Shown: in pieces, positions 1-56,617 of the stretch
How the letters are laid out: each line of letters begins with the position of its first letter
How positions within the stretch are numbered: the stretch's first letter is position 1
Assembly: GCA_963795085.1 (NCBI GenBank)
Contig: CAWCFX010000001.1
Coordinates: forward strand, 640,001-704,000
Direction: 5' to 3'
Source: an uncultured Gemmatimonadales bacterium
GTDB lineage: Bacteria > Gemmatimonadota > Gemmatimonadetes > Gemmatimonadales > GWC2-71-9
Length of the DNA: 64,000 nucleotides
Notes under the pieces: generated by a model
What the model was told of the DNA's origin: nothing
Database searches by the model: none
Seen by the model: the letters and a program-made list of their open reading frames with translations, nothing else
Position numbers and translations under genes: made by a program

Positions 1-21
1 GCCTCAACCACCACGCCGGCC

Positions 22-53632: not shown

Positions 53633-55717
53633 TCAGCGGGTAGTTCGGACCCTGACCGACGCAACGGCGTCTCCCGGCAGAATGCGCTCCACCCCCTCCA
53701 TGCCCCCGATGACCTGCCCGACGACGGTGTACTCGTGGTCGAGTTGCGGGTTGTCCACCAGGTTGATGAACAGCTGCGCATCCCCGGTGTCGCGGCCCCG
53801 GGTGCTGATCCCCAGGGTGCCCCGGGCATGGGTGCGGAACCCCAGTTCGTCCCGCATGAAGCGGTCATCGCCGATGTATTCCGAGGCCCCGGGCCCGCCG
53901 CCCTGGATCACGAAATTGGGTTCCACCCGCTGCCACAGCTTGCCGTCATACCAGCCTTCGCGGGCCCGCCGGACCAGCCGCGCGATGGCCGCCGGTGCTT
54001 CCCGGCTGAACAGCCGCACGAGGAAGGAGCCGCCGCCGCTCTCCGCCGCCATGGTCACTTCGAGTTCGAGGCTGTCGCCGAGAAAGATGTCGGCCAGCGG
54101 CTCCGGTTCGATCGCCAGGGGGACCGGCGCCGCCTCGGCCGGCGCGCCCGTCCACCGGGCCAGCATGGCGGCCGCGGTGTCCGCGACCGTGGTGTCGAAG
54201 TCGCTGAGGTAGGGCTGGAGCCGCGCCGCCACCGCCGGGGTGCCCATCTCGCCGATCCGGGAGAGCAGCGCGAGCCGGGGATCCCGGGCGTTTTCGCTGC
54301 GCCGGCGGCTGACCCGGTCGAACGCGTTGAGTAATGCTTCCACCGCGCGCGGATGCTCCGAACCCGCCAGCGCCTCCGCCGCCGCGAGCAGGACCTGGTT
54401 CCCGTCCGACGAGAGCGCCGCGAGAAAGGTGGTGTCCGCCGCACGCTTCTCCGTGGCGGCCAGGCCGGCGATAGCCGCTTCGCGGACGTTATCGTCAGCG
54501 TCCCGGGCCAGCCGGTAAAGGACGCCGGGGGCGCTCACCAGGGCGGCTGCGCGGGCGGCGAACTCGCGGTTCTGCCATTGGCGAGCGCCGGCAAATCGCG
54601 CCAGCAACGGGGTGGCCCGGGCGGAGTCGATCCGGGCCAGGGATACCAGCGCAAACGCGCTGGCCTGCCAGTCGCGGCTCGAGGTATCGGTTTCGTCCGC
54701 GCGAAAACCCGCGACGGTGGCCAGGACAGATGCCGCGGCCTCGCGGTCCGCGCAGGGCTGTCCCAGGGCGGTTATCGCGACGAGGATAACATAGGGATGC
54801 GGATCTTCCAGCGCGGAAACCAGTGGGGCGCAGTCCGGCGCGGGCGCTCCCGCTCCGGTTCCCGCCCGGGCCGCGGCGACCGCCGCGATCCGTACCATGA
54901 AGCTGGAATCGGCGAACGCCCTGCGCACCAGCGCCGTCCGGGCGGCCGGCGGGAGCCCGGCCGCGCCGGCCATTGCCAGCCGGCGAACCTGCGGGTCGGG
55001 ATCCCGGCTGGCCGCCCGCGTGGTGGCGGAGTCGAGCGCGCCCGCCCGGGCAAGGGTCACCACCGCAAGTCGCCGATGCAGGGTGTCCTTCGAAGACCGT
55101 GCCGCCTCACGCAGGAGTCCGAGCGCCGGCGCCGGGAGATTGCCGAGGACCCGACGTCCCGAGGCCAGCCAGAAGAGCCCGTGAGTCATCCCGTAATCCA
55201 GCGTGCCGTTCGCCCGGGCCACGATCGCCTGGGTCGCCCAGCGGGCCTGCGCGCTGTCCCTGAGTTGGAGACGCCCGATCGCCTCGGCGATGACCCCGGC
55301 AACGCTGTCGTCCGATTCCCGGGCGATGGCCTCGGTGAGCACCCGGAGGGCGACCGGGACATCCAGGTGGGAGGGATCCCCGGCCGCCTGACCGCGCGGC
55401 TGGTCGCGCAGAGTCTGCGCCAGCGCGATGGCCGCCTCGGCGCGGATCGCCGGGAGCGGGTCCACCAGGAGGGGGAACAGCGCGCTCCCCAGGTCGGGCC
55501 GCTGCAGCCGGCCGACCGCGCGCGCCGCCACCCGGCGGATCAGGGTATCCCGGCTTTCCAGTCCTTCCATCAACGGCGCAATGCGATCGCTGCCCTGTCC
55601 GCGGGCGTCTTCGGCAATCAGCAGCCGCTGCAACGTGGCGCGTTGGGCCGCCTGAGCGACCGCCCCGCCAGGCAGAGCGGCGACGAGGGCAAGTGCCAGG
55701 GCAAGAGAACGTTTCAA
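53633..55717 (-). CDS. Secreted HEAT-repeat protein with C-terminal cyclophilin-type peptidylprolyl isomerase
   Basis: Signal peptide after TTG (alternative ATG 55765), HEAT repeats, RVEPNFVIQGG, RGRDTGDAQLFIN. Confidence 0.9.
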   Translation of the reverse strand: MKRSLALALALVAALPGGAVAQAAQRATLQRLLIAEDARGQGSDRIAPLMEGLESRDTLIRRVAARAVGRLQRPDLGSALFPLLVDPLPAIRAEAAIALAQTLRDQPRGQAAGDPSHLDVPVALRVLTEAIARESDDSVAGVIAEAIGRLQLRDSAQARWATQAIVARANGTLDYGMTHGLFWLASGRRVLGNLPAPALGLLREAARSSKDTLHRRLAVVTLARAGALDSATTRAASRDPDPQVRRLAMAGAAGLPPAARTALVRRAFADSSFMVRIAAVAAARAGTGAGAPAPDCAPLVSALEDPHPYVILVAITALGQPCADREAAASVLATVAGFRADETDTSSRDWQASAFALVSLARIDSARATPLLARFAGARQWQNREFAARAAALVSAPGVLYRLARDADDNVREAAIAGLAATEKRAADTTFLAALSSDGNQVLLAAAEALAGSEHPRAVEALLNAFDRVSRRRSENARDPRLALLSRIGEMGTPAVAARLQPYLSDFDTTVADTAAAMLARWTGAPAEAAPVPLAIEPEPLADIFLGDSLELEVTMAAESGGGSFLVRLFSREAPAAIARLVRRAREGWYDGKLWQRVEPNFVIQGGGPGASEYIGDDRFMRDELGFRTHARGTLGISTRGRDTGDAQLFINLVDNPQLDHEYTVVGQVIGGMEGVERILPGDAVASVRVRTTR

Positions 55718-55777
55718 GGTCGCTCCGGGACGGGGGTGGTTGCGGAAATCCGGTCGTGTCTGCATTGTAGTGGCCAC

Positions 55778-55915
55778 AGGCGGGGTTCCACGCCTAACCT
55801 CTTCGGCTCTCCCCCAGCGGGAGCCCACGGGAGGCAAAGGGGGGCAGACCCTCGGATCGCAGGGCCAAACCTTTGGCGCCGCCGCCGGCGACGCTGCTGG
55901 GGAGCGTGCCGGAGG
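55778..55915 (+). ncRNA. Putative structured cis-regulatory RNA (multi-stem, possible pseudoknot)
   Basis: Six nested helices plus a loop-to-junction pairing GGGTTC/GAGCCC; ends ~21 nt before ATG 55937. Confidence 0.6.
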
Positions 55916-55936
55916 CCCGTCCAGAGGATCCTTCCG

Positions 55937-56617
55937 ATGACCACCAACAAAGACTATAAGCGTATCGTGCGCGCCCGCATGGTCCGAACCGGCGAGTCCT
56001 ATACTGCCGCACGGGCGCACCTCCAGGCTCAAGCGGATCCCGCACGGGCCGCCCTTCCCCGGGTCGCGGACCATGCCACCCTTGCCGGGATGAGTGACGC
56101 CGCCATCAAGGCCGGGACCGGCTGTGACTGGCGGAAGTGGGTCGAGGCCCTGGATTACAGGAAGGCCCACGAGTGGTCCCACCGCGAAATCGCCGCGTAC
56201 GTCCGCGAGAAGTTCAGGCTCTCCAGCTGGTGGAGCCAGGGTGTCACCGTGGGTTACGAGCGCATCAAGGGGCTCCGGGCCATCGGCCAGCGCCGCGGCG
56301 GCGACTTCGATGCGAGCAAGAGCAAGACATTCAACGTCGCCCTGAGCCGCTTGTATAACGCGTTTGGCGACAAGCGGAACCGGAACAAGTGGCTCGGTCC
56401 CGTGGAGCTGACGGTGAAGACGGCCATCCGGGGCCGGTCCATGCGGATCACCTGGTCCGACGGCAAGCCGGTGGAGATGTCGTTCGTCGCCAAGGCGCCC
56501 GGCAAAAGCACGGTCACCGTCACCCACCACAGGTTGCCGGATCGCGCCGCGGTGGACCGGGTCCAGGCCGAGTGGGCGGCGAGGCTGGAAGCCCTCGGAG
56601 CACTGCTGTCGCGCTGA
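55937..56617 (+). CDS. Protein with Arg/Lys-rich N-terminal motif + DUF4287-like + SRPBCC-like domains
   Basis: MTTNKDYKRIVRARMVRTGESYTAARAHL; MSDAAIKAGTG..W..H.EIA..WWSQGVTVGYER; C-terminal START-like fold pattern. Confidence 0.85.
   Translation: MTTNKDYKRIVRARMVRTGESYTAARAHLQAQADPARAALPRVADHATLAGMSDAAIKAGTGCDWRKWVEALDYRKAHEWSHREIAAYVREKFRLSSWWSQGVTVGYERIKGLRAIGQRRGGDFDASKSKTFNVALSRLYNAFGDKRNRNKWLGPVELTVKTAIRGRSMRITWSDGKPVEMSFVAKAPGKSTVTVTHHRLPDRAAVDRVQAEWAARLEALGALLSR

Follow-up and report, generated by a model that had tools for sequence, protein, structure and literature searches.

Does the gap between two divergent genes in a 64,000-nucleotide (nt) stretch of an uncultured Gemmatimonadales genome (the window) encode an RNA, and if so, what does the RNA serve? 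The two start codons lie ~170 nt apart. The gene on the plus strand runs from the ATG at 55937 to 56617 and encodes 226 amino acids (aa; protein start MTTNKDYKRIVRARMVRTGESYTAARAHL). An earlier note, made from the letters of the window, had proposed for the gap a pseudoknotted leader RNA bound by the basic N-terminal peptide of the protein that follows. Our comparative analysis identifies a conserved leader RNA with covariation and two predicted pseudoknots, which is coupled to an N-terminal helical hairpin across unrelated proteins. RNA and hairpin together may make up a portable cassette for translational control: the basic hairpin would bind its own leader and set the translation of its own mRNA, a reading to which we give slightly less than an even chance.

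A leader RNA with two pseudoknots

The upstream 170 nt of nine homologous loci align with a mean column identity of 77-80%, compared with 50-57% identity of the proteins over their full length. This conservation ends abruptly ~45 nt before the element, and the flanks do not align. The protein has 5555 relatives at E ≤ 0.001 among 6893 candidates, its family comprises 2295 cluster representatives, and a relative is present in 10 of 41 related genomes; a search of genome contigs for related loci returned one locus. RNAalifold yields helix P1, helix P2 enclosing P3, helix P4, a long-range helix P5, and a helix that pairs an anti-Shine-Dalgarno (anti-SD) box with the SD region (Table 1). The covariance model R1 (164 positions, 33 base pairs), seeded with the ten sequences of alignment A2, matches the window at 55776-55939 on the plus strand with 160.6 bits (E = 3e-33). 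This is the sole copy in the genome, and R1 finds one copy each in 20 of 151 sampled Gemmatimonadota genomes. Further loci came from metagenomes, where a 24-nt pattern taken from the invariant middle of the RNA, blind to any open reading frame (ORF), was used for retrieval; at least 120 stretches matched, and R1 matches 79 of the 80 loci fetched. The eightieth (L084, 1001-1024) is a chance match to the pattern, apparently inside an unrelated coding region.

In alignment A4 (100 sequences, 98 distinct rows), 96.8% of 4384 cells pair, compared with 90.6% in shuffles. Two-sided changes occur at 22 pairs (14.0 ± 1.7 in shuffles) and in 322 cells (64.7 ± 14.2), and none of 500 shuffles reaches any of these three values. 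When the 3' partners are slid by 1-3 columns as a control, 38-55% of cells are paired and 15-40 show two-sided changes. The 28 genome-derived sequences give the same covariation picture as A4. Compensatory changes are found in eight helices, and G-U pairs are frequent (94 of 98 at one P4 pair), which fits an RNA read from the plus strand. P4 and part of the first pseudoknot (PK1) lay within the metagenome scan pattern and are biased towards sameness in those loci. The stretch GAGGCAAAGGGGGG is identical in all ten A2 sequences.

The pseudoknots are absent from the search model R1, yet covary. At the variable middle pair of PK1, 79 of 100 rows have A-U, 9 G-C, 6 G-U and 6 other combinations; at the variable pair of the second pseudoknot (PK2), 89 of 100 rows have A-U and 8 G-C, two rows are misaligned and one has A-C. 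In distant members both keep their complementarity with entirely different letters, which settles their existence on comparative grounds. The diverged locus L206 reads as PK2 CCUGCGC/GCGCAGG and PK1 CCCC/GGGG; its RNA folds with a z-score of -3.21 and has the same order of P1, P2 (P3) and P4. Rhizobium and Streptomyces members have PK1 GGCCU/AGGCC (or AGGUC) and P4 GGGAC/GUCUC, and Nonomuraea has PK1 CGUCC/GGGCG and P4 GGGAGG/CCUCUC; in these variants with other letters, too, the PK1 partner lies directly 3' of P4. The locus L174 carries another, wholly different perfect 7-nt PK2 complement. Pairings in the distant variants were read by eye; when the ten members that differ most were aligned with MAFFT (A8), the 3' half came out too poorly registered to count pairs formally. 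A per-sequence shuffle test of pseudoknot complementarity, in which between 2 and 1000 of 1000 shuffles equalled the native sequence, had low power, with RNAfold redefining the loops, and was not used as support. Two contributing genomes are unpublished: G018 supplied L003, one of the ten A2/R1 seed sequences, and G083 supplied L027 (one row of alignments A3 and A4) and L174, one of two diverged cassettes. The main conclusions stand without them, and L206 in genome G058 gives the same points.

The densely structured, pseudoknotted leader of the earlier note is borne out by covariation and not by the fold of a single sequence. The minimum free energy of 55778-55937 (-78.5 kcal/mol) is no better than that of dinucleotide shuffles (-77.94 ± 4.44 kcal/mol; z = -0.13; 86 of 200 as stable), and the minus strand of the same stretch gives z = -0.19; on either strand, the single sequence thus behaves in the way that the note had named as speaking against its proposal. 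Since chance complementarity equals the observed stability, single-sequence criteria alone would have dropped the finding, and comparing the fold of a lone GC-rich sequence with shuffles is uninformative and may overlook a real RNA. The upstream conservation and covariation among homologues for which we looked are present.

In detail, the earlier structure and the conserved one differ considerably. All seven complementary segment pairs listed in the note exist where it placed them, with every pair standard or G-T. Two of its six helices survive comparison, namely AGGCG/CGCCT (P1) and the core of CCCCAGCGG/CTGCTGGGG (PK2, 98.9% paired); the other four are not conserved. Among 28 related sequences TTCGGC/GCCGGA is paired in 58.6%, CGCC/GGCG in 54.2% and CCCT/AGGG in 32.0%, and the set as a whole pairs in 67.1% of cells, compared with 66.3% in shuffles, with double changes at 9 pairs (6.3 ± 1.5 in shuffles; 38 of 500 reach 9). 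Drawn as a nested helix, CCCCAGCGG/CTGCTGGGG would exclude P3, yet all seven P3 pairs covary. The pseudoknot GGGTTC/GAGCCC is paired in 59.3%, and the real partner of the P1 loop lies 3' of P4. The fourth helix, CAAAGG/CCTTTG, fares no better: of the 32 rows (among 100) whose box is a variant, 17 keep all six pairs to the SD and one keeps them to the upstream CAAAGG, which is invariant. Where the box varies, the rows do not support this helix as a conserved ON-state alternative either, a reading that was rejected; the 68 of 100 sequences that have the consensus box could still form it. The structure was also thought to end before the ribosome-binding site (RBS), and the conserved fold instead contains the RBS, paired with the CCTTTG box.

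The note could assign no named Rfam family, and none applies. A search of window positions 55300-56400 against Rfam 15 at E ≤ 10 returned nothing but CRISPR-DR20, which scores 15.7 bits where the gathering score is 42 and lies outside the element, at 55567-55605; L176, L177, L174 and L052 at E ≤ 1 gave only a 23-bit small nucleolar RNA match, inside the L052 ORF. A conserved upstream ORF within the leader was rejected because the variable regions differ in length by one or two bases between members.

Table 1 Features of the leader RNA and its gene in the window (positions count from the first letter of the window)
Feature	Position	Strand	Remarks
-35-like hexamer TTGCGG	55740..55745	+	leader promoter (predicted); window match TTGCGG-17-CATTGT
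-10-like hexamer CATTGT	55763..55768	+	overlaps CAT 55763-55765, read as start codon of the divergent gene
Structured 5' leader RNA	55776..55936	+	R1 match 55776-55939 includes the ATG
P1 hairpin AGGCG (55778-82)/CGCCT (55791-95), loop GGGTTCCA	55778..55795	+	four inner pairs invariant in 98 of 98 distinct rows
PK1: P1 loop GTTCC (55785-89) with GGATC (55854-58)	55785..55858	+	U-U mismatch 55786/55857 in the window
P2: CCTC (55798-801)/GAGG (55831-34), encloses P3	55798..55834	+	100% paired; U-A to C-G in 2 rows
P3 hairpin GGCTCTC (55805-11)/GGGAGCC (55819-25), loop CCCCAGC	55805..55825	+	95.2% paired; 7 of 7 pairs change on both sides
PK2: P3 loop CCCCAGC (55812-18) with GCTGGGG (55896-902)	55812..55902	+	whole 7-nt loop; strand inside P5
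Junction CAAA (55835-38) and P4 GGGGG (55839-43)/CCCTC (55849-53)	55835..55853	+	P4 100% paired, G-U at a fixed place
Anti-SD CCTTTGG (55870-76) with SD region CCAGAGG (55921-27)	55870..55927	+	97.9% paired; 5 of 6 pairs change on both sides
P5: GCCGCC (55881-86)/GGAGGC (55911-16), encloses the PK2 3' strand	55881..55916	+	96.5% paired; 5 of 6 pairs change on both sides
N-terminal basic helical hairpin, residues 1-33 (MTTNKDYKRIVRARMVRTGESYTAARAHLQAQA)	55937..56035	+	helices 5-18 and 22-33 (AlphaFold2 model)
Variable linker, residues 34-45	56036..56071	+	no secondary structure; predicted local distance difference test (pLDDT) <50 at 37-41
Body: DUF4287-like helical domain (~46-110), AHSA1/SRPBCC fold (~124-226) and stop	56072..56617	+	

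Association of the RNA with an N-terminal peptide

The RNA lies directly upstream of one protein module. Peptides were counted by the motif R.R[MA]..[TS]GE.[YF] (type KDFKRLVRARMxKTGESYTxAR) in an ORF within 150 nt of the RNA. Such an ORF follows in 100 of the 107 R1 matches (28 from genomes, 79 from metagenome loci); four are cut by contig ends and three are decayed, giving 100 of 103 assessable matches. The body behind the RNA is of AHSA1 type in 92 of the 107 cases and BtrH_N+DUF4872 in 3; in 9 the available DNA is too short for a body to be read, and 3 have none. Within the 151-genome phylum sample, the peptide profile occurs in 19 genomes, exactly those with a full RNA match; the twentieth RNA-bearing genome, G043, holds a remnant only. 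The window genome has one RNA and one peptide. The gene is always single, with no transporter or biosynthesis genes downstream among the 107 matches.

Beyond these matches, two extra peptide loci, L174 (DUF4287+AHSA1) and L206 (BtrH_N+DUF4872), have diverged RNAs in the same layout. Two diverged RNA-peptide pairs per genome are found in G058 (L028/L204 and L206), where the two cassettes sit on different bodies (AHSA1 type; BtrH_N+DUF4872), and in G083 (L027 and L174). A tblastn search of plasmids with the peptide gave 34 records. In 28 of them, from Rhizobium, Sinorhizobium, Phyllobacterium, Microvirga and Streptomyces, a carbon-nitrogen (CN) hydrolase or a broken copy of one follows the peptide, and blastn with the Rhizobium leader recovers the same 28 records, with RNA and peptide in each. 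R1 scores 51.5 bits in Streptomyces, 44.7 bits in Rhizobium and 38.2 bits in S. meliloti. In Nonomuraea (2.5-kb locus scanned), the cassette precedes a 354-aa protein without a Pfam match. The element is present in at least three phyla (Gemmatimonadota, Actinomycetota and, on plasmids, Rhizobiaceae), at a constant distance from the start codon. Four bodies stand behind it, DUF4287-like+AHSA1, BtrH_N+DUF4872, CN_hydrolase and the 354-aa body, in agreement with the statement in the earlier note that the peptide is fused to varied domains.

Homologous bodies that lack the peptide also lack the RNA in all six cases examined, comprising three of the AHSA1 family (L010, L170 and L168) and three CN hydrolases at 39-50% identity (L183, L184 and L185; only 66 nt separate the CN hydrolase of L184 from the preceding gene). 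The RNA and the N-terminal hairpin share their gains, losses and transfers. The portable module of the earlier note is recovered in this form, and its defining oddity is that the RNA tracks a 30-residue N-terminal peptide and not the body, protein family or pathway. In a 5.8-billion-protein set, a search for the peptide in longer proteins gave 5602 matches, and those among the 120 listed are mostly of the same 215-250 aa family or short proteins; residues 1-40 of the window peptide had no match among proteins of >396 aa, which is weak evidence.

Several loci depart from the standard arrangement. Among the decayed copies, L031 (1501-1700, in G043) retains the RNA's 3' half together with a shortened peptide ORF; L051 is missing the 5' part of its RNA and carries a frameshifted gene; and the L057 RNA is truncated within its 3' part, with an unrelated frame behind it. 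At L168 (G170, 1250-1510), where the body is 54% identical and the peptide is absent, short upstream stretches resemble scraps of the leader, as if co-decayed. Six Sinorhizobium meliloti/medicae plasmid records contain matches (H27-H32, H44-H48 and H60) in DNA without an annotated feature. The S. meliloti RU11/001 plasmid pSmeRU11c (L180, 1042-1290) keeps the leader (38.2 bits), with ATA as the start codon and a truncated CN-hydrolase frame, and looks like a pseudogene with an intact leader. On the minus strand of L046, the RNA (924-1081) is followed by a 56-codon ORF with a GTG start that holds peptide and linker only, either a stand-alone peptide or a deletion remnant; the next gene encodes a cysteine-rich (CxxCxxC) protein, possibly a ferredoxin. 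At L020 (1660-1700), ACG replaces the ATG of all other members and the peptide frame is open, and the ACG may be a non-canonical start, an error or a fresh mutation.

The promoter, the protein and the neighbouring genes

A sigma-70-like promoter is predicted directly upstream of the leader. The pattern TTGNNN-16..18-NANNNT ends 2-12 nt 5' of P1 in 95 of 99 loci, compared with 1.04 ± 0.98 in shuffles, and by eye Rhizobium has TTGACG-17-CAATTT at the equivalent position. This looser pattern, anchored on P1, was applied across the loci after a strict consensus scan of 55600-56100 for promoter and terminator had found neither. With a promoter-like pattern just before P1, the whole fold should lie in the 5' untranslated region (UTR). 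The RBS (AGAGGA) occupies 55923-55928, 8 nt 5' of the ATG.

The AlphaFold2 model of the window protein, built on 80 homologues (mean pLDDT 93, predicted template-modelling score 0.70), agrees with the claim of the earlier note that the N-terminal peptide is a separate module: two helices, a low-confidence linker and then the body. Linker length and sequence vary among homologues, and K5, K8, R12, R14, M15, G19, E20, Y22 and T23 are invariant in 26 diverse copies of the peptide. Over residues 1-30, the 92 distinct RNA-linked peptides carry a net charge of +3 to +8 (mean 5.55) and the peptides of five variant cassettes one of +5 to +8, compared with 0, +1 and +2 in the small group of three RNA-less relatives. 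Constraint on the peptide codons at the RNA level was considered and rejected: synonymous codon identity (0.606, compared with 0.544 in the conserved body block) is not unusually high, which indicates that selection acts on the protein.

The first domain of the body scores 14.7 bits against DUF4287 (PF14117; E = 0.032), below the 27-bit cut-off, and the L174 paralogue scores 27.3 bits; the window domain is probably a distant DUF4287 member. The window protein has no AHSA1 match in Pfam and no match in NCBIfam, and some homologues carry PF08327. Foldseek matches the modelled helix-grip domain to Aha1, CalU16, YndB and other SRPBCC chains; the top matches include 2m89, 4fpw (CalU16) and 2kte (YndB) (probability 1.00, E down to 7.8e-5). 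As modelled, the C-terminal domain is an AHSA1/SRPBCC helix-grip fold of the Aha1/START superfamily.

On the opposite strand, the divergent neighbour (53636-55765, start at ~55765 chosen from the ORF table) encodes a HEAT-repeat and cyclophilin protein. Its presumed start codon overlaps the -10-like hexamer of the leader, and the two genes share a very tight control region. The 3' neighbour, an M28 peptidase gene, is convergent, so that the gene of the leader stands alone. Two long ORFs across the intergenic region, of 965 codons (53633-56530, minus strand) and 754 codons (54353-56617, plus strand), are high-G+C artefacts and were not taken as genes.

Possible roles and relation to known systems

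In our proposal, the stretch 55776-55936 serves the gene at 55937-56617 as its 5' untranslated leader. The RNA folds into P1, P2 enclosing P3, P4 and P5. Its 5' and 3' halves are locked together by the two pseudoknots, one joining the P1 loop to bases just beyond P4 and the other joining the P3 loop to a strand that P5 encloses, and in this subtype the anti-SD box forms the closing helix with the RBS. RNA and first ~30 codons are inherited and exchanged as one unit, the Lys/Arg-rich hairpin being tethered by a floppy linker to whichever enzyme follows. The hairpin of the finished or nascent protein would bind the leader and hold the SD-sequestered form, and the cassette-bearing protein would limit its own translation. 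Control may be repression or activation, and may differ in the CN-hydrolase subtype. Autogenous control by the hairpin is favoured by the association with a peptide and not a pathway, by the charge contrast and by the two diverged pairs in each of G058 and G083. More tentatively, and at somewhat less than an even chance, promoter, double-pseudoknot leader and a 30-residue hairpin recognising the RNA may form a self-contained, transplantable cassette for post-transcriptional control, which evolution would have carried undivided to four or more unrelated enzyme genes, in three phyla and on conjugative plasmids, with diverged pairs in one genome that do not cross-react.

A number of observations weigh against this proposal. 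The RNA is larger and more intricate than most protein-binding leaders, with longer invariant junctions, and is in these respects more riboswitch-like. Nested helices were counted on a model-fitted alignment and kinship inflates the shuffle tests, and the window copy itself is mismatched once in PK1 and once, as G-A, in P5. The peptide profile has no meaningful match, and none marking RNA binding, among Pfam families and PDB sequences. In Euzebya (L178), a Streptomyces plasmid (L179) and Frondihabitans (L181), looser relatives of the peptide stand without the RNA, which points to some RNA-independent function of the hairpin. Co-inheritance of adjacent sequences alone explains part of the RNA-peptide association, and the body swaps may represent few events (three or four). 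In the CN-hydrolase subtype (L176 1352-1503, L177 1350-1503 and L180 1042-1194) no anti-SD helix is seen, and a single mechanism may not cover all members. There, the SD region reads AAGGCC; its complementarity to the P1 loop (GGCCU) could make it a competitor of the PK1 partner and hints at a switch that works differently.

The main rival to autogenous control is a riboswitch, or a sensor of another trans factor, whose double-pseudoknot domain would recognise an ion or small molecule and in response expose or hide the RBS. The peptide would then be an unrelated module (for example for oligomerisation, localisation or DNA binding) kept with the leader by recombination that spares the 5' end of the gene. 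We consider this unlikely, with a probability that is low but appreciable. A conserved, structured 5'-UTR domain with covariation is present, and its size, two pseudoknots and long invariant junctions (AACCUC and GAGGCAAAGGGGGG) resemble known aptamers. A variable expression platform on a conserved core could account for the anti-SD helix of the Gemmatimonadota type and its apparent lack in the CN-hydrolase type, and one compound class could link bodies that are enzymes or small-molecule binders (CalU16-like AHSA1/SRPBCC, CN hydrolase, BtrH_N); the RNA-less peptide relatives are also consistent with a sensor. However, the peptide is common to all 100 assessable intact members although their bodies come from four unrelated families, and the peptide-less homologues of two of these families are without RNA in six of six cases. 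The RNA always heads a single gene, at one copy per genome in the R1 phylum sample, with no transporter or biosynthesis genes following, and the RNA-linked peptides are markedly more basic than the RNA-less ones.

A stable ribonucleoprotein, in which the leader, perhaps processed, stays on the hairpin as a scaffold, chaperone or tether for the enzyme, appears improbable to us. It would resemble cases in which an RNA is encoded beside its protein partner. In its favour, each RNA strictly has one peptide partner, whatever the body and phylum, masking of an SD alone would require a less elaborate RNA, and two diverged pairs in one genome (G058, G083) would suit pair-specific recognition. However, the RBS is built into the conserved fold of the main subtype, which points to translational control, and no terminator or processing signal was found between RNA and ORF. 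That there is no functional RNA at all, the complementarity being a chance effect of GC-richness, a DNA-level site or the end of a mobile element, is barely credible. The unexceptional single-sequence fold on either strand, and the presence of the divergent gene's promoter in the same region, are offset by ~80% column identity over 164 nt in comparison with the less conserved proteins and non-aligning flanks, by the compensatory changes and strand-specific G-U tolerance, and by the constant distance from the start codon across phyla.

The element is widespread (at least 120 metagenome stretches, 20 of 151 Gemmatimonadota genomes and 28 rhizobial or Streptomyces plasmid records). If autogenous control is correct, it adds a natural RNA-peptide pair that is new, and an autoregulatory module that can move between genes; if the peptide does not recognise the RNA, it is an orphan riboswitch candidate with an unusual gene context. 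We know of no report of a comparable compact RNA-peptide recognition pair with built-in gene control.

Parts of this arrangement have precedents. The pseudoknotted leaders of the E. coli rpsO/S15 and rplT/L20 operons are under autogenous control by ribosomal RNA (rRNA) binders, whose rRNA sites they mimic. Like them, the present RNA is a structured 5' leader, has a pseudoknot fold that takes in or borders the RBS, occurs only before the gene of its own presumed basic binder, and would act on translation. No sequence or Rfam relation to ribosomal-protein leaders was found, and the presumed binder differs, being a 30-residue hairpin on unrelated enzymes that moves together with the RNA. Phage lambda N/boxB and HIV Tat/TAR pair arginine-rich-motif peptides with small RNA hairpins in transcription antitermination or activation. 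They share with our system a short, basic, helical and modular peptide and a structured RNA encoded nearby, the peptide here being N-terminal. In contrast, the RNA described here is ~160 nt long, with two pseudoknots, and would mask its own SD, and the peptide is modelled as a two-helix hairpin. The SAM-II, preQ1-II/III and guanidine-III riboswitches are pseudoknotted and act on translation; the likeness lies in a pseudoknot fold within the 5' UTR, highly conserved junction bases and SD sequestration. Unlike these, our element has no Rfam match, and its genes share an N-terminal peptide and not a pathway.

The RNA appears to be a new class: it matches no Rfam 15 family, and literature searches on the motif, its bodies and the peptide found no paper describing it. 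Term look-ups in the main texts of three surveys from the Breaker laboratory (PMC11109978, PMC8632094 and PMC5737381) gave no description of the motif, which their supplements could list. The main text of one of these surveys (PMC11109978) takes the restriction of a motif to the region before one kind of protein as a sign that this protein regulates itself through it, and the same logic of association, applied there to candidate protein-binding motifs, applies here. A cis-acting leader that is possibly autoregulated by its product is thus a known arrangement, and what is new is its portable pairing with a 30-residue peptide across unrelated enzymes.

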